Part shown: positions 5,388-24,767 of the stretch, piece after piece
Numbering within the stretch: position 1 is the first letter of the stretch
How the letters are laid out: every line of letters begins with the position of its first letter
Origin: a virus
IMG/VR virus record: IMGVR_UViG_3300045988_113737
Direction: 5' to 3' (one strand)
Length of the DNA stretch: 46,747 bases
Position numbers and translations under genes: made by a program
Notes under the pieces: model-generated
What the model was told of the DNA's origin: nothing
The model's input: the letters and a program-made list of their open reading frames with translations, nothing else
The model's database searches: none

Positions 5388-5422
5388 AAAAAAAAAGGGC
5401 TACCGGATTTCTCCGATAGCCC
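5388..5422 (-). terminator. Rho-independent terminator
   Basis: Minus strand gggctatcgga-gaaa-tccggtagccc followed by T9. Confidence 0.85.
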
Positions 5423-6934: not shown

Positions 6935-7244
6935 CAATTCGCTTGAAATAAAGCCTTTTTATTTTTGTCGGAATTTTCGGCACTCACCCCGCCCCGGCTC
7001 CGGCTCGTATATCCCCCGCCCCGGTTCGAGCAGATCAGCCACACGAAAAGGAAAAAAAAAACATTGATTTATTGCAATCATGCCCCGGTCAAAACCAATT
7101 TCAATTTCAAAATCAAGGAAAATTTTAATTGAAAATCCTTGCAGCTTGCAGATCATACCAGAGAGAACAACAAAAAGCCCTTGTAATAGGCCACATAAGG
7201 CCGTAAAAAACCCGTTATATATAGGGGCAGTATCAGGACATAGG

Positions 7245-18994: not shown

Positions 18995-19747
18995 TTAACC
19001 CTCCTGTGCTTCATAGGCCGTCAGCATATCTGCAACTCCGGCAATCAACTGGTCACACACATCAGCGGTGATCTTTGTGAACCCCTCAGTTTTCACCGCA
19101 ACACTCTGGACAAAGGACTCCTGATCGGGGTCAAGTTCCATGAGCTTTTTCAGGGAGGTTTTCAGATTGGCAATCTGTTCCTCACTGGCGGCATTCTCAG
19201 GAGCGGAAGTCAGCTCAGACTTGATCTCCTGCCGCTGTTCCTGCGTGACAGGGGCTTTCCGGGTCTTCTTGGGAGCGGGAGTAGGAGCGTCCTGACCATC
19301 CTCTCCACCGGAGATATTGTCAATGCTGTCGGCCTCGATAATGTCAAGAACCAACTGCCAGAGATACCGGCGAATGTAGGTGATAGAACTGCCAAGGGCC
19401 TGCATTTCATTCGTAACCACCTTGCCGGTGTTCGAGATGATCGGGGCAATCTGGGTGAAAGGAACCTCAAAGACAACCGGCTCTTCCTCACGGTCATCAC
19501 AGTTATAGACCTTGGCGGTAGCGAAGTCCTTGCCAACGGTGGGAACCATCAGAAGACCAACCTCGGCAAAGATGGACTCTGCGGTGGGAACAATGTCTTG
19601 CAGCTCGAAGTACATGAACTCCAAGTGAATGTTCTTACCGGTCTTCTTCACCCCGGCTTGCAGGAACTTCAACCGGGCCAGCTGCAACTTTGCAAGGGCA
19701 TTCATGGTGCTGTAATCAACAGCGGGAGCGGGAGTTTTGGTAGCCAT
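18995..19747 (-). CDS. ERF-family single-strand annealing protein
   Basis: YFELQDIVP and QALGSSITYIRRYL motifs. Confidence 0.8.
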   Translation of the reverse strand: MATKTPAPAVDYSTMNALAKLQLARLKFLQAGVKKTGKNIHLEFMYFELQDIVPTAESIFAEVGLLMVPTVGKDFATAKVYNCDDREEEPVVFEVPFTQIAPIISNTGKVVTNEMQALGSSITYIRRYLWQLVLDIIEADSIDNISGGEDGQDAPTPAPKKTRKAPVTQEQRQEIKSELTSAPENAASEEQIANLKTSLKKLMELDPDQESFVQSVAVKTEGFTKITADVCDQLIAGVADMLTAYEAQEG

Positions 19748-19750
19748 CTG

Positions 19751-19885
19751 TTATACCTCCTGAAACTTCTTCAAAAATTTGTGAGAGCTGATATATTCGT
19801 TCATCTTAGCTCTCTGCTTTCCTGCGGCCCTGCGGCGGCTAAAGAAAAGCCGTCTGCGTTCCGCTCTTCCGGGATTTTTCTTCAT
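19751..19885 (-). CDS. Small basic protein (44 aa)
   Basis: ATG overlaps the upstream stop (ATGA). MKKNPGRAERRRLFFSRRRAAGKQRAK... Confidence 0.4.
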   Translation of the reverse strand: MKKNPGRAERRRLFFSRRRAAGKQRAKMNEYISSHKFLKKFQEV

Positions 19886-20157
19886 ATTGAACCCTCCAAT
19901 AATTTCAAAAGATTTCTTTTTGTGACGGCAACCATTGTGTCACCGCTCAACATCTTCCATCGGAACTTCCGATCTTTCGGTACGAGATCAAGGTCTTCTG
20001 CTTGGAAACGGAGATCGAAGTCATGAACCGTATGACCGTCTGCGTGAAAGGAAACAGGGGAGTCCCTATCCCACTTCAAGAGAAGTTTCCACAGGTCAGG
20101 GTACTCTTTTCTAAGAATTCGCAGCTGGTCTATCCCTTGATTGTGACAAAACCAACA

Positions 20158-20166
20158 CCCCCCCCC
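20158..20166. repeat. C9 (coding-strand G9) homopolymer, frame-switch point 2
   Basis: ...TATRGG in one frame continues as CWFCHNQG in the +1 frame exactly at the run. Confidence 0.9.
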
Positions 20167-20374
20167 GTGTTGCCGTGGTATAAATCGGAGATAGTAGTCC
20201 TCGCTCTTCACACCACTTCCGGCAATCGGCCTCTGTCCATCCGATTTCCACTAAGGGCATTTTGAACCCCGGTTTATCATGCCTCTGTATGCGCTCAGGC
20301 TCGTCAGCGGCTATGCCAAGGTACTGCACAATATTTGTTCCGGCTCCTTGTGCAAGGGAGCTGCGTGAAAACCC

Positions 20375-20542
20375 GGCGTTTGAGGTCGCTGGTACACCAC
20401 GGGCCTTTGATGATCGGGAACCCGAGGATAAGACCCGTCTTTGAGTTTCTTGCACCATGCGCTGACCGTAAACGGGAACCCGTTGCAGATTTCGAAGTTT
20501 GAGTCTGCTGTTGCACCATGGAGCGAGGCGGGGTGGGAACCC
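20375..20542 (-). repeat. Three diverged tandem 58-61-nt cassettes, each encoding GFP-x5-WC-x2/3-LK in a different frame
   Basis: Units begin gggttccc at 20542, 20481 and 20423. They translate as GFPPRLAPWCNSRLK, GFPFTVSAWCKKLK and GFPIIKGPWCTSDLK. Confidence 0.85.
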
Positions 20543-20556
20543 GGCAATCGGAGATA

Positions 20557-20565
20557 CCCCCCCCC
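20557..20565. repeat. C9 (coding-strand G9) homopolymer, frame-switch point 1
   Basis: Follows ...DRFGEGG. The three downstream frames each contain one motif cassette. Confidence 0.9.
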
Positions 20566-20889
20566 TTCACCGAAACGATCTAAGGTCTTTTTCTTCCTTA
20601 CCGGGATATGGTAAAACAGTTTCTCATAAGTCAACTTTTCACCGTTCCGAACGGCACATTGATGTTCTACCTCAATCCCATACCGCTCTCGAATGATTTC
20701 ATCGGCTTTTGCTTTGAATTGAACCATTGGAGGCAGATCAGCCGGAATATCATCGGTAGCCCAAACCTCAGCATGGGTAATTCGGTCAAGCGGCCAACCA
20801 AGCTCTTCAATGGCTCCCAAACAAGCCAAACTGTCCTTACCATAGGAGAGCGAAAGAACATACTCGGTGTTAGGTTCTCTTTGCATACC

Positions 20890-22734
20890 CTATCCCTCCA
20901 ATAAGGATAACAGGGTTTTCTTCACCTTGTTCACCTTCCGGGTATTCCTCTTAGGAGGCTTCTGCCCGAGAAAATCACGGACATACCGCTTTGCCAGCCG
21001 GATATACCAATCACGGTCAACTACATCAATGCTTAGGTGATTATCATTGTCCACTACACACCTTGAAGGAAGACCGGCAATCTTGACCGGAGTGCCGGTG
21101 GTGAGGTGCATTTTGTAGAGCGTCCCGAACCGGTGATCTTCGGTAGCATACACACGGTTGACCTTCTGCACAACATTCAATTCTCCGTCAACTTCATGAA
21201 GAGCGTCACCATACTTACTTCCGGCCTTGGCTACCAACTGGAAATCTAAGAGCCGATCACACTCCATAATGGTCTTCTCTACCGGTACACCGTAGGCCAG
21301 ATAATCCTTGACGGCCCTGGCTACCACACAAGCATTGTTGTTGATGTTGAACGCTCCTGCTGGTGCAATGCCCCGAACAAGAACCCCGCCTTTGATTTTC
21401 GGCTCCCCCTCGAAGGGAACCTCTACATAATTGTTCACATCTTTCTGGCAGATCATCTTTATCAGGTCTTCTTCCAACTCGAACCCGGTACGCTGTTCCC
21501 ATTCCTGAGTGATTTCCTGATACCGGGTAACATCGGAGTCATCAAGGCTAACCATGATACCATCAGTGTTAAGCTGGATGATTTTCAGCGTGGGGCATTC
21601 CTGAGTGAGATGGACGGCCATTTCAAGTAGCTGCAACTGGCCTGAGATACATACTGACCGGCCCATGAGAGAGTCATAGAGGTCATTGTACTGATTGAGC
21701 ATAGCCCCGTAGGTGGTGTTCAGAACCAGTTTCAGAGCGTTTGCCGTAGCCTTATCCCCTGACTTCTTCGCCTTGACACGCCGCTCAATGGTGGCGGCAT
21801 ACACATCGGGAGAGGGAATGTTCCGGCTACAATACCCATTCAAGATCATCTGGTGAGGGTAGTAACTGGCAACATCTTTATTCCGAATGGAGCGAGTTTC
21901 CGTGGCTTCTTCCCGGTAACAGGGAATTGCGCCGTGAATACCTCCGTAGGCAATCGTGCAAGGGCAATCTCCCACGGTGATCTCCAACTTTTCCTTGAAC
22001 ACTACCTCATTGGGAATGCTCATGTCTTTCAGCCGGTCAAAGAAGTCAAACACCTTTTGCGGGATATACTGCTTCAACAGAGCCGGTGGGTACTGGTACT
22101 CACGCTCGTCATAGTGGGGCTTCGGTTCTGCGTCAAGGTAAGCTGCGGTCAACTTGGCATTGGTCATATAGAGGGCCTTTGCTGGGTAAATTCCCTTTTC
22201 TTTCCCCAGAGTAAGTTTGCTGGAAAGATAACCCTGCCGCAGATCGTCCAACTGGTCAGTTGCGTCTACATCGTGCTTGCAGTAAAAAATGACTTCATCA
22301 AGTTCCTGCTGAGTGAGAGGCCGGTTGATGTTAAAACTTACCGTTGTTTCTCGAATATCCATCCCCAAGTGCGCTTCAATGGCTTTCAGGGATAGACCCA
22401 TCTGGCAGTCATCCATGAGATCATATTGGTCAAAATAGACCCGGCTCTCACACAGATCAGGGTGTTCCCACCCCTCATGTCCCTGCACGATGATAAAATC
22501 GTTGACTGCTTTGACCTGTTCCGGGGTATAATCACAGAGGACGGCTTTCAAAATGAACTGGTCATAGTGCTTATTATTGAAGCCTCCCAAAAGGGGTTCT
22601 TGCTCCATGAACTGGCGCACAGCCTCATTATCGTTGTGGATGACCGTGTACTCTTTCGTGGTCTTGTGCTTAAAAACAAAGAGCCAATCGAAAGCGAAAA
22701 CCTCACAGTCAAAAATATAGCGATCATCAATCAT
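20890..22734 (-). CDS. Family-B DNA polymerase with 3'-5' exonuclease
   Basis: Exo motifs FDCEVF, NKHYDQFIL, YCKHDVD. Polymerase motifs DVASYYPH (A), KLVLNTTYGAM (B), LNTDGIMV (C). Confidence 0.85.
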   Translation of the reverse strand: MIDDRYIFDCEVFAFDWLFVFKHKTTKEYTVIHNDNEAVRQFMEQEPLLGGFNNKHYDQFILKAVLCDYTPEQVKAVNDFIIVQGHEGWEHPDLCESRVYFDQYDLMDDCQMGLSLKAIEAHLGMDIRETTVSFNINRPLTQQELDEVIFYCKHDVDATDQLDDLRQGYLSSKLTLGKEKGIYPAKALYMTNAKLTAAYLDAEPKPHYDEREYQYPPALLKQYIPQKVFDFFDRLKDMSIPNEVVFKEKLEITVGDCPCTIAYGGIHGAIPCYREEATETRSIRNKDVASYYPHQMILNGYCSRNIPSPDVYAATIERRVKAKKSGDKATANALKLVLNTTYGAMLNQYNDLYDSLMGRSVCISGQLQLLEMAVHLTQECPTLKIIQLNTDGIMVSLDDSDVTRYQEITQEWEQRTGFELEEDLIKMICQKDVNNYVEVPFEGEPKIKGGVLVRGIAPAGAFNINNNACVVARAVKDYLAYGVPVEKTIMECDRLLDFQLVAKAGSKYGDALHEVDGELNVVQKVNRVYATEDHRFGTLYKMHLTTGTPVKIAGLPSRCVVDNDNHLSIDVVDRDWYIRLAKRYVRDFLGQKPPKRNTRKVNKVKKTLLSLLEG

Positions 22735-22755: not shown

Positions 22756-23370
22756 TTACAAATTTCCCCATTGGTCAACCATGGCCTTTGCAATACCGGG
22801 GAAGGTCTTAGACGCTGTTACAGGGTCATGTGCCGTTCCTTTTGACCCTCCGCCTCCACGAGAAAAAGCCCCTGTATTGCTGGGAAGAAATGGAGTGTGT
22901 TCAGTCATGATTTTTGTAGGTTGAAGAGGCGGCAAGCCTTTCAGCCACAAGAGCGTTGCTTTACTGTATGGATGACCATATTCGTAGGGTTGAATGACCT
23001 GTGTAGGGGGGGGAAGTCTTACAACTTTCAATGGCCTTGGGTTCTCAACACAAATTCTGGGACAATCGGCCATTAAAAATCTCATGAAAAACGCTTTCGC
23101 TTTCATAGCGAGGTCATAGCGTTCTTGTGACAACTCTCCCGCCTTGGGGTACATCCATCTGGCTCCTGCCTTGCTCATGTAGGTACAAGGTGGATGGGCG
23201 ATAATCATATCCCACCTGATTTTCAGAATTTCAAGAGCGTCCGCCCGAAGATGATACTCAGGGTGTCCACCACTACACTCTACAAGATCACAACTATAAG
23301 CCTCGTGCCCGGCCTCCCGGAATGCGTTCGCCACGGTCTGGCTCTCTTCACAAGCAACAAGAACTCTCAC
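22756..23370 (-). CDS. Cytosine-C5 methyltransferase-like protein (short form)
   Basis: HPPCTYMS (PPC) and CVENPR (ENV-like) motifs. GTG start overlaps the helicase stop (GTGA). Confidence 0.45.
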   Translation of the reverse strand: MRVLVACEESQTVANAFREAGHEAYSCDLVECSGGHPEYHLRADALEILKIRWDMIIAHPPCTYMSKAGARWMYPKAGELSQERYDLAMKAKAFFMRFLMADCPRICVENPRPLKVVRLPPPTQVIQPYEYGHPYSKATLLWLKGLPPLQPTKIMTEHTPFLPSNTGAFSRGGGGSKGTAHDPVTASKTFPGIAKAMVDQWGNL

Positions 23371-24767
23371 CTTACCGCCCCCTCTAACCAATGACAGCCA
23401 AGTTTGCGGTAAGTGGTACAGCGTTTCTTGAAGCTGCGGACGAGATACTGAATACCGTTGTCCACATAATCATAGACAACAGGTGTCACCTTTCCTTCAA
23501 AGGTACGGGCAACCCGGCCCACACTCTGAGCGATCACGGCATAATCTTTTTGGGGAGTCACTAAATAGAGCCGGTCAAGCCGTGGAATGTCCAGCCCCTC
23601 TTTTGCCAAAGCATAGGTGGCGAAGAGGAAGTGTTTCTTACCGGCTCTCATATCCTCAATGGCTTTTTCTCTTTGAGTTTTACCCTTTTTGGAAGTCATC
23701 TTCCCATCTACCATGACTGACTTATCTCTCAGTTCTTTTGGTAAATGCTTCATGAGATATTCCAAGTGAGAGAGCCTATCGGAGAGAATGAGATTGTAGT
23801 GACTGCCATTAGTCACCAGATCACAGACAATTTGCCCGTTCCGGCGAAAATCCTCAGCCAAATAATTTACCAGTTTCGCATAGATAATCGTGCCGTCAGT
23901 ATCAAGGAACTCTTTACTCAGGCCAATGTTTGTGTACCGGGGAAGAATGCTGACCGTCATGATCTTATCCGCTACGGCTTCGTCCGGCACCTGATAGGCT
24001 ATCTTTCCAAGTAAGGCATAGGTAGCTGCGATCATACCATCTGCCCGGTGAACCGTTGCAGAGAGGCCATATTTATGCCGTGCGGCCAGAGCATTCAGCA
24101 CCTTGGAGAACTGCGTGACTGCGGTAGGTGTACCGGCTACCCGATGGCACTCGTCCACGATGACACAACCCCAAGTGTTCTTATACCGATCAAGGTCGAG
24201 ATTGCACATGGTCTGAACCGTAGCAAAGGTGATACCTCTGCCAATGTGAACCCTTCCCTCGGTGATTGTACCGGTCAAGTCAGGGTTCATATACATCTCA
24301 GCCCGGTTTTTGCTTTGCAGAAGCAAATCTCTCGTGTGGGTCAGCCACAGTGTCTTTTCACCTATCGCACAGGCCAGAGCAATTCCGATCTGGGTTTTTC
24401 CTGAACCCGCCGCACTTTGCAAAATTCCCTTTCCGCTTTCCACCAGGGCGGCTTTCGCCTGTTCCTGATACTCATAGAGGGGAACAACACACTGGTAATC
24501 TACCGGTTCCTGCTTGGCAAATTCCATGGACACATCAATGAACGGGGATAGCCTGAGAACATCATTGAAGCACCCATAAGGGAGAACCAGTGTGTTTGCG
24601 TCCCACTCCATCAGATACAACTTCTGGGGAGTGTTCCCGAGCCAAAGGTTCATTCTGGCCTTTTTGGTGTAGTCCGGGTTTGCCAGTACCAGATTTTTCT
24701 TACACCACGCAATCAGTTCCGGGGAAGGGTCTTCAATGCGAAGCCGGTTTGATACTACCATCCGCAT
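23367..24767 (-). CDS. SF2 DEAD/DEAH-box helicase
   Basis: Walker A AAGSGKTQ, DECH box, QSVGRVAR. Start MRMVV overlaps the resolvase stop. Confidence 0.85.
   Translation of the reverse strand: MRMVVSNRLRIEDPSPELIAWCKKNLVLANPDYTKKARMNLWLGNTPQKLYLMEWDANTLVLPYGCFNDVLRLSPFIDVSMEFAKQEPVDYQCVVPLYEYQEQAKAALVESGKGILQSAAGSGKTQIGIALACAIGEKTLWLTHTRDLLLQSKNRAEMYMNPDLTGTITEGRVHIGRGITFATVQTMCNLDLDRYKNTWGCVIVDECHRVAGTPTAVTQFSKVLNALAARHKYGLSATVHRADGMIAATYALLGKIAYQVPDEAVADKIMTVSILPRYTNIGLSKEFLDTDGTIIYAKLVNYLAEDFRRNGQIVCDLVTNGSHYNLILSDRLSHLEYLMKHLPKELRDKSVMVDGKMTSKKGKTQREKAIEDMRAGKKHFLFATYALAKEGLDIPRLDRLYLVTPQKDYAVIAQSVGRVARTFEGKVTPVVYDYVDNGIQYLVRSFKKRCTTYRKLGCHWLEGAVR

Follow-up and report, generated by a model that had tools for sequence, protein, structure and literature searches.

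To our knowledge, most described cases of phase variation are on/off switches of bacterial surface and restriction-modification genes, and in phages it is known only for polyG tracts in the receptor-binding genes of Campylobacter phages. The simple sequence repeat (SSR) contingency loci of Campylobacter, Helicobacter, Neisseria and Haemophilus, like the polyG loci of Campylobacter phages, carry intragenic homopolymers or dinucleotide repeats that shift the reading frame between near-identical genomes, and the same holds for the gene described here. This gene encodes a PP-loop protein resembling phosphoadenosine phosphosulfate (PAPS) reductases and lies on the minus strand of the virus record IMGVR_UViG_3300045988_113737, whose full stretch of 46,747 nt is called the window below. 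Hypermutable polyG tracts have been reported in Campylobacter phages (Sorensen et al. 2021, Cell Rep 35:109214, as cited in PMC10877375), and they share with the tracts of the window gene a location within accessory or modification-type genes of a phage. Whereas the known SSR loci switch expression on and off or among a few levels, the window gene contains three copies of one motif, each with signs of selection in its own reading frame, and a candidate re-framing signal. Unlike the polyG genes of Campylobacter phages, it belongs to a prophage of a gut Firmicute (Oscillospiraceae) and does not encode a receptor-binding protein.

Several described systems share individual elements with this locus. 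The alpha-1,2-fucosyltransferase gene futC of Helicobacter pylori combines a poly-C tract with translational frameshifting (PMC2752801). As proposed for the window gene, slipped-strand mispairing at a homopolymer is coupled to a frameshift site further downstream, and off-frame alleles may yield some full-length enzyme. The frameshift cassette of futC, A_AAA_AAG, was reportedly described by Wang and coworkers in 1999. futC has a −1 site only and lacks duplicated cassettes in alternative frames, whereas the site in the window putatively funnels two off frames into one. In the arterivirus porcine reproductive and respiratory syndrome virus (PRRSV), programmed ribosomal frameshifting by −1 and −2 on G_GUU_UUU gives rise to nsp2TF, and the tail-chaperone genes G/GT of phages use −1 frameshifting. 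The PRRSV site resembles the one in the window in its U-rich slippery run with a stimulator about 6–10 nt downstream, and this one site supports both the −1 and the −2 shift. The PRRSV stimulator, in contrast, is a protein–RNA complex in a eukaryotic system, and G/GT yields two products from one frame; the role proposed for the window site is the opposite, namely to lead several incoming frames into one. A G-run is also edited in the mRNA of the paramyxovirus P/V/W gene, where its length picks which of three overlapping frames joins a common N-terminus. There, the variation arises by polymerase stuttering at the RNA level and the C-termini are unrelated, whereas in the window gene the variation is genomic and concerns three copies of one motif. 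Searches of the literature turned up no account of one catalytic motif arrayed in three frames, selected by a repeat and followed by a signal at which the frames rejoin.

On balance, the comparisons presented below favor the view that the window gene is a selectively maintained contingency locus of a temperate phage of gut Oscillospiraceae, in which repeat length picks the cassette that is decoded. A more specific proposal, which we put forward tentatively and regard as possible rather than probable, is a three-part module made up of a repeat that selects the frame, three overprinted active-site loops, of which each tract length would bring a different one into the enzyme, and a U-run with a hairpin that resets the frame by −1 or −2.

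Layout of the gene in the window

The gene spans positions 19882..20886 (minus strand; all features of the gene given below lie on this strand) and is broken into three frame pieces. The N-terminal piece, which starts with an ATG at 20886 and encodes the PP-loop motif SLSYGKDS at 20830..20853, and the C-terminal piece, which starts with TGT at 20157, are in a common frame, while the middle piece, NIVQYLG... beginning at 20335, is shifted by 2 relative to them. In the following, frame M denotes the frame of the middle domain (NIVQYLGIAADEPERI...TATRGG, 20167..20335), M+1 and M+2 the other two frames, and N frame that of the N-terminal piece. The frame switches coincide with two runs of nine G, tract 1 at 20557..20565, the proposed frame selector, and tract 2 at 20158..20166, which directly precedes the C-terminal domain (19882..20157, beginning CWFCHNQG). 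The window has no other G or C runs of at least 9 nt, and both runs lie on the same strand within one 1-kb gene; two or more G9 runs occurred in 16 of 100 dinucleotide shuffles of the 46.7-kb window and are thus not rare in themselves.

Restoring the tracts to G10 and G8 gave a single open reading frame (ORF) of 334 codons, as a preliminary description of this DNA had proposed, and the translated product is 100% identical to the database protein P0001 over 334 aa. The coordinates which that description had given for the G9 runs, the ORF pieces, the repeat starts and a slippery heptamer all check out. By its reading frames, the G9/G9 allele of the window is one in which the N-terminus reads cassette copy 2 and the C-terminal domain is off. 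Even given a −1 shift downstream of the cassettes, its predicted translation would end with ...TATRGGVLVLSQSRDRPAANS and a stop, and no full-length enzyme would be possible from this allele because the C-terminal domain is off.

Length variation of the tracts among relatives

Relatives were collected as 80 IMG/VR loci found with a protein query, 41 viral and 51 metagenome loci retrieved with a conserved stretch of DNA as anchor, and 80 loci from species-representative genomes. Where the metagenome contigs carry descriptive names, these identify them as human-gut metagenome assemblies, and many are NODE contigs in SPAdes style. Pooling these sets resulted in 80 distinct gene regions of the multi-cassette clade from IMG/VR, metagenomes and one Logan contig; the alleles counted below are related by descent and not phylogenetically independent.

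Run 1 ranged from G6 to G10 in the relatives and also occurred in the interrupted forms G9C and G6AGG. Among distinct alleles, run 2 was most often G8 (35 alleles), followed by G9 (12), G7 (6), G11 (1) and G12 (1), and a G13 tract was found in one genome locus (L254, a metagenome-assembled genome (MAG)). Relatives that are 97–99.9% identical to the window over 3.1 kb showed only 0–3 gap openings. These match tract-length differences in L086, L083, L090, L136, L137 and L232, and two of the three gap openings in L094 were attributed to the tracts. In L086, which is 99.87% identical over 3.1 kb with 3 mismatches, the sole indel is in run 2.

More distant lineages have no G-runs and carry polymorphic (AG)n or (GA)n repeats at the equivalent junctions, with 8, 9 and 10 units in L116, L112 and L019 and 5 versus 6 units in L129 and L117; at the equivalent junction of L020 and L093, G5 is found versus G6. 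The (GA)n or (AG)n tracts, translated as (RE)n, reach about 20 units (L019, L022, L024, L031, L072, L179, L195) and sit upstream of, between or downstream of the cassettes; the kind of repeat varies from lineage to lineage while its position is the same. Run 2 consists of the Arg-Gly-Gly codons CGG/AGG GGG GGN in 46 of 76 multi-cassette alleles, whereas all 16 single-cassette alleles have mixed codons at this site and none of the 16 has a G-run.

Comparing frame state with tract length across the relatives showed that changes in tract length shift the downstream coding sequence in and out of frame. The tract lengths to which the preliminary description had assigned the three cassettes exist in nature, and copy 1 is in the N frame at G10 or G7, copy 2 at G9, and copy 3 at G8. 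As far as can be judged from the alleles, these polymorphisms are hallmarks of hypermutable contingency repeats and not of random decay.

Three cassettes under selection in three frames

Downstream of tract 1, the motif GFP-x5-WC-x2/3-LK is encoded three times, each time in a different frame. Copy 1 (GFPPRLAPWCNSRLK, 20498..20542) is in frame M and is the copy read in the intact 334-aa alleles P0001-P0015. Copy 2 (GFPFTVSAWCKKLK, 20440..20481) is in frame M+1 and in frame with the N-terminus in the window, and copy 3 (GFPIIKGPWCTSDLK, 20379..20423) occupies frame M+2, with the canonical spacing to the middle domain. The units begin with gggttccc at 20542, 20481 and 20423, with spacings of 61 and 58 nt, and the third extends over 49 nt to the GGGTT at 20374, adding up to 168 nt (3×56). 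The preliminary description had noted that the first two units are 3n+1 nt long; the third is as well, and therefore successive copies fall into M, M+1 and M+2, with the last cassette always in M+2. A repeat search recovered three occurrences of CGGGTTCCCG, 58 and 61 nt apart, and two of CATGGTGCAA. Tandem Repeats Finder reported no array in the cassette region because the units are too diverged.

Asked in the preliminary description whether they hold one cassette or three, the homologues turned out to keep all three cassettes as well as the tracts. Throughout the clade, down to about 53% protein identity, the last cassette keeps to M+2 and the preceding one to M+1, and homologues often have translated repeats, GGG(G) or (RE)n, directly before or between the cassettes.

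Selection on the cassettes was assessed as the ratio of nonsynonymous to synonymous differences per site (pN/pS; Nei-Gojobori) in an alignment of 15–17 diverged relatives. In its own frame, copy 2 had a pN/pS of 0.18, compared to 1.31 and 3.22 (frame M) in the other frames, and copy 3 had 0.17, compared to 1.48 (frame M) and 2.84. The flanking domains gave 0.20 (others 1.47 and 1.83) for the N domain, 0.13 (1.80 and 2.62) for the M domain, and 0.13 (1.35 and 2.77) for the C domain. Sequence variation within copies 2 and 3 is located at third codon positions, as counted in the frame of each copy. The low own-frame ratios mean that the off-frame copies evolve like coding sequence, although the intact ORF reads this region as linker, and they bear out the doubt about neutral decay voiced in the preliminary description. 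Judged by this substitution pattern, the hidden cassettes are under purifying selection in their own frame at a strength like that of the flanking domains. The pS of copies 2 and 3, about 0.4 versus 0.7 in the flanks, fits an added constraint by the overlapping frames. A role of the repeats as iterons or as an origin was rejected, as each copy varies with a periodicity of 3 in its own frame.

The region around the cassettes is open in every frame. A stretch of 256 nt beginning at tract 1 (20568..20312) contains no stop in any of the three frames, and the coding strand of the window has no longer stretch of this kind. When the 175-nt cassette region was shuffled, 47 of 2000 shuffles were stop-free in all three frames. 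In all relatives with a G-tract, the sequence from the repeat to a T-run downstream of the last cassette is free of stops in every frame, which is matched by 0.2–5% of shuffles per sequence. Where the tract is located after cassette 1 (L007, L018, L026, L029, L030, L034), all off-frame stops lie on its upstream side. On the 3' side of the T-run, stops in M+2 follow after 5–8 nt in 12 of 80 alleles and after 65 nt in most others, and stops in M+1 follow after 34–58 nt. Translational bypassing of the T4 gene 60 type between the GGG UUC repeats (61, 58 and 49 nt) was considered and discarded, no stop being present after any copy.

A conserved U-run and hairpin downstream of the cassettes

The T-run (U-run in the transcript) is part of the site GGGTTTTC at 20367..20374, the putative point at which the frames rejoin. 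The heptamer GGGTTTT at 20374..20368 is in phase as G_GGT_TTT for the N frame of the window, which is M+1 at this point. This agrees with the preliminary description, which had noted a phased slippery heptamer in the frame of copy 2; we find in addition that the heptamer is followed by a conserved hairpin with compensatory changes. Frame M+2 reads G_GUU_UUC at the site, and re-entry into M from there would need a −2 or a +1 shift. All multi-cassette relatives have a run of T4 to T6, and most of them share with the window a G_GGU_UUU phased for M+1. In some lineages the site reads A_GAG_UUU or G_AGU_UUU, at which only tRNA-Phe would be able to re-pair. The T-run site itself (GCCGGGTTTTC, 20361-20374) is homologous to the cassette start GCCGGGTTCCC (20528-20545), with 78% identity over 18 nt at a distance of 168 nt; it resembles the beginning of a fourth, truncated unit that encodes GFS, not GFP, in frame M.

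The hairpin of the window, GCUCC-C-UU-GCAC-AA-GGAGC (20343..20361), conforms to the consensus GCNCC-N-UU-GCAC-AA-GGN'GC with 5+2 bp (7 bp) and starts 6 nt 3' of the U-run. Across 21 distinct sequences, 147 of 147 pair cells were paired. One pair occurs as UA (13), CG (6), AU (1) and GC (1), an inner pair as UA (19) and CG (2), and the genome loci add the stem variants GCCCG/CGGGC and other loops. Pairing or covariation as high as that observed was reached in none of 500 shuffles. The variable 5' base is non-synonymous in frame M (Ser, Pro, Thr, Ala) and its partner is the third position of a Gly codon, so that protein constraint alone does not explain the match between them. Local folding of six variants yielded the hairpin as the structure of minimum energy, with values of −7 to −11 kcal/mol. 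The stem always lies 10 nt from the first T of the run (T4+6, T5+5, T6+4).

Of 74 distinct alleles with the last cassette out of frame with M, 73 have a T-run with a GC-rich hairpin, versus 3 of 16 alleles in which this cassette is in frame. Two of these three are recent fusions of the type found in the protein P0016 (see below), and the third, L022, has a degenerate off-frame copy. The lone out-of-frame allele without T-run and hairpin has a (GA)n repeat in that place. An Rfam scan of 19800..21000 gave no match. An alternative outer stem, CCGG/CCGG, suggested by folding a 56-nt segment, is not conserved in relatives and was rejected in favor of the covarying 5+2-bp hairpin.

Proposed mechanism

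We propose that the hypermutable run 1 changes its length by replication slippage and thereby sets which copy is decoded in its own frame: G10 or G7 would place copy 1 in the N frame, G9 copy 2, and G8 copy 3. Ribosomes would pass through the remaining two copies as spacer, as the lack of stops in all three frames allows. The frames would then rejoin at the conserved U-run GGGUUUUC, which is followed by the hairpin 6 nt later. At N-UUU-UC, tRNA-Phe would slip back to the UUU furthest 5', the one in frame M, by −1 from M+1 on G_GGU_UUU and by −2 from M+2 on G_GUU_UUC; ribosomes already in M would encounter no slippery phase and would not shift. The predicted junction peptides are QTPGFSRSSLAQ for the −1 and KRRVFSRSSLAQ for the −2 shift, within the stretches ...QRPQTPGFSRSSLAQGAGTNIVQYLGIAADEPER from a G9 allele and ...WCTSDLKRRVFSRSSLAQ... 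from a G8 allele. Run 2, directly before the CWFC cysteine motif, would act as a simple on/off switch that turns the C-terminal domain on at G8. The comparisons demonstrate the polymorphism of the tracts, the selection on hidden cassettes in their own frames, the openness of all frames, and the covariation of the hairpin together with its association with out-of-frame cassettes; ribosomal re-framing at the U-run and hairpin is inferred, and likewise any functional difference between the cassettes.

Natural alleles and population pattern

Intact alleles include P0001 (G10/G8, 334 aa) and alleles with G7/G8, which encode 333 aa, and intact ORFs in which copy 1 is read are common among the database proteins. 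With run 2 at G9 or G10, natural proteins are truncated at about 272 aa. Copy 2 is fused in frame in the natural alleles P0069 and P0072, and copy 3 in P0016, P0066 and P0110. In P0016, run 1 is G8, copy 3 is in frame, and an insertion of 2 nt fuses copy 3 to the middle domain. The resulting sequence (...LKRRVFSRSSLAQ) is exactly the predicted −2 junction peptide, while P0072 (...QTPGFLLAPLAQ) matches the predicted −1 peptide only through the QTPGF take-off, its landing side being that of a divergent homologue. It follows from the natural fusions P0016 and P0072 that proteins joined at this point are viable.

P0027 and P0039 have an in-frame loss of 168 nt from the GCCGGGTT of copy 1 to the GCCGGGTT of the T-run, by which the whole array is gone, and in P0106 (7 member sequences) a deletion lies exactly between the two G-runs (GEGGG joined to CWFC). 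The repeats therefore mediate deletions, too. DNA deletion between 10-nt direct repeats was also considered as a general route for expressing copies 2 and 3 and was rejected: it cannot work because the frame of these copies relative to M is fixed without a downstream indel, and an indel restoring the frame was found in 3 of 80 alleles (P0016 type, 2-nt insertion).

The N-terminal frame of distinct G-tract alleles was M in 12, M+1 in 21 and M+2 in 23, which is not different from uniform (p = 0.16); the intact 'on' state, with the N-terminus in M, is thus the rarest (12/56). The C-terminal domain, in contrast, was in frame with M in 44 alleles versus 12 and 6 in the other frames (p = 2e-9). Continuity from M to C was kept in 30 of 39 genomes with an off-frame N-terminus (77%) and in 9 of 12 with the N-terminus on, a pattern to be read with the caveats that the alleles are related and that the tract-length equilibria of G8 and G9 may differ. 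The continuity where the N-terminus is off suggests that the M-C part is still translated in these genomes.

Identity of the protein

The PP-loop corresponds to residues 12–19, of which S14, Y15, G16, K17, D18 and S19 are invariant in 59 homologues. The protein matches PHROG 424 ('phosphoadenosine phosphosulfate reductase') with E = 1e-28. Pfam and NCBIfam gave zero matches for the fragments and for full-length alleles, so that no curated family model was reached, and a sequence search of the PDB returned noise only. An AlphaFold2 model from an alignment led by P0016 had a predicted local distance difference test (pLDDT) score of 77, with the N and M-C parts well modelled. The best Foldseek matches were the PP-loop ATPases MnmA, TtuA, NcsA, LarE and GMP synthase; they were weak (E about 0.01–0.1). 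Among the 59 homologues the middle domain carries invariant residues, for instance in the motif GIAADEP, and conserved cysteines are found in the WC of the cassette, in a C-x3-C of the middle domain and in CWFC. With PP-loop ATP pyrophosphatases and PAPS-reductase-like proteins the gene product shares the N-terminal SxSxGKDS PP-loop, and its weak fold matches are led by PP-loop thiolases, some with [4Fe-4S] clusters. Canonical relatives have about 250 aa, a single cassette and no repeats, whereas the window gene is a multi-cassette gene with repeats. We therefore file the protein as a PP-loop superfamily enzyme and not as a proven PAPS reductase.

Alternative explanations

Several points weigh against the contingency reading. 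The canonical heptamer is not universal, as several lineages have AGAGTTTTC, where only the U-run could slip, and −2 shifts are rare in bacteria. The hairpin is short and of modest stability (5+2 bp, −7 to −11 kcal/mol), and a 56-nt window sequence folds no better than its shuffles (z = 0.39). In the AlphaFold model, the cassette and linker (residues 107–181) are unstructured, with pLDDT <50. Alleles of the L007 type, with cassette 1 upstream of the tract, always have an in-frame cassette and do not need the hidden copies for the motif. Some tract-length differences, which were compared between assemblies only, could be assembly miscalls; the modes of the tracts (run 1 G9, run 2 G8) could reflect mutational equilibrium rather than selection; and the allele counts come from phylogenetically non-independent sequences.

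One alternative, which we think unlikely, is plain on/off phase variation, under which the G-runs would merely turn the enzyme on (N-terminus in frame M, copy 1 decoded) or off, copies 2 and 3 would be relics of tandem duplication or of allele mosaicism read as linker, and the hairpin would have an unrelated role. Tract polymorphism and frame switching are demonstrated and intact copy-1 ORFs are common among database proteins, both of which such a switch would account for; in addition, the region of the first cassette is mosaic between lineages, and the adjoining methyltransferase gene has a polymorphic C-run as well. Relics read as linker are at odds with a pN/pS of 0.17–0.18 in the own frames of copies 2 and 3 compared to 1.5–3.2 in the linker frame M, and with frames that are open exactly between the repeat and the T-run. 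Moreover, the 'on' state is the rarest (12/56), yet M-to-C continuity is kept in 77% of 'off' genomes, and the hairpin accompanies out-of-frame cassettes.

A rather improbable further explanation dispenses with frameshifting altogether: in the M+1 and M+2 states the product would be a truncated isoform of the N-terminal PP-loop domain and its in-frame cassette that ends just after the T-run and functions alone or with an M-C fragment initiated separately. Own-frame selection on copies 2 and 3 and the openness of the frames up to the T-run are accounted for here equally, and ORF callers do give a 191-aa M-C fragment with an ATG/GTG start inside copy 2 (P0095). The ATG in copy 2 is not conserved, being AGCTGG in other lineages, and no properly spaced Shine-Dalgarno sequence is present; internal initiation of the M-C part was rejected on the ground that this ATG is not conserved. 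The middle domain holds invariant residues of the same fold (GIAADEP), and the covarying hairpin and the constant 10-nt spacing are left unexplained by an isoform of this kind.

We consider it very unlikely that homopolymer errors produced the G9/G9 allele from what is really an ordinary, unbroken G10/G8 (or G7/G8) ORF. The off-states recur in dozens of independent assemblies and in a cultured isolate (G8/G9), the lengths extend from G6 to G13, dinucleotide repeats vary also, and interrupted ('locked') tracts exist in different frames. That both breaks coincide exactly with long homopolymers, that the repaired ORF equals P0001 at 100%, and that tract lengths are known from assemblies alone would suit an assembly artefact, but miscalls would not yield conserved off-frame cassettes, three open frames and a hairpin.

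Of the two readings offered by the preliminary description, the contingency or recoding locus is upheld with regard to tracts, cassettes and own-frame selection, whereas the decaying pseudogene with miscalls is not. A decaying pseudogene of mosaic fragments, to which the broken frame in the window and the relatives with a deleted array (P0027, P0039) or an inter-run deletion (P0106) might point, is refuted for the family by the constraint analysis and hardly credible, given a pN/pS of 0.13–0.20 in all gene parts without in-frame stops, indels and disabling changes in close relatives that are confined to the two tracts, and an architecture conserved across hosts to about 53% identity.

Host, neighborhood and related loci

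The cultured isolate Oscillospiraceae bacterium CM18GR_63 carries a 99%-identical copy of the gene in a prophage on a 230-kb contig (L232; JAWQDX010000005.1, 143655-147655), with G8 in run 1 and G9 in run 2. From this near-identical prophage in an isolate we conclude that the phage is temperate and its host a member of the Oscillospiraceae. L172 is another locus on a large contig (792 kb). Other relatives were found in Faecousia, Ructibacterium, Lawsonibacter and further Clostridia MAGs.

The gene is part of a replication module with the order helicase, DNA methyltransferase, DNA polymerase, PP-loop gene, 44-aa ORF, ERF and RecE-like exonuclease. In the window, the 44-aa ORF is located at 19751..19885 and ERF is a separate downstream gene (18995..19747), while in P0035, P0046, P0049, P0052 and others (556–580 aa, PF04404) the enzyme was called as a fusion to the ERF recombinase domain. 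The methyltransferase gene (PHROG 757, 22756..23391, minus strand) contains a T+C8 run on its coding strand (23006-23013), which is in frame in the window; relatives have ACT+C8, one nucleotide shorter (7 distinct loci), C9 or C10. By these run lengths, it is probably the second phase-variable DNA-modification gene of the module.

In a collection of annotated phages, phage nd4 was the only relative, and a distant one. Its homologue (L001 3718-3726, OR777945.1) has two in-frame cassettes and a TGA in place of the TGG that encodes the CWFC Trp in the window; in the nd4 annotation the gene is split at this TGA. It could be a point-mutation pseudogene or a case of stop-codon reassignment; other genes of nd4 also look short.

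Elsewhere in the window, a T9 run (5388-5396, minus strand) is not in a gene but lies after a hairpin and before GGAGG-ATG, and thus looks like a terminator followed by a ribosome-binding site. A T10 run (7052-7061, minus strand) is likewise outside genes, with stops in all frames around it. Both A-runs look ordinary.

Implications

The module appears to be widespread in prophages of human-gut Oscillospiraceae and their relatives, and the family is largely invisible in current annotation because gene callers split or mis-annotate such genes. If the proposed mechanism holds, the locus would represent a compact coding strategy that joins heritable switching to translational recoding, and a new way for a virus to encode switchable variants of an enzyme in less than 200 nt. 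It would also provide a natural setting in which −1 and −2 frameshifting can be tested for ribosomes that arrive in different frames. The benefit to the phage is probably bet-hedging of a DNA- or nucleotide-modifying activity, which we propose because the adjoining methyltransferase gene has a polymorphic C-run, too; if true, this would suggest that gut phages hedge such modifying activities.

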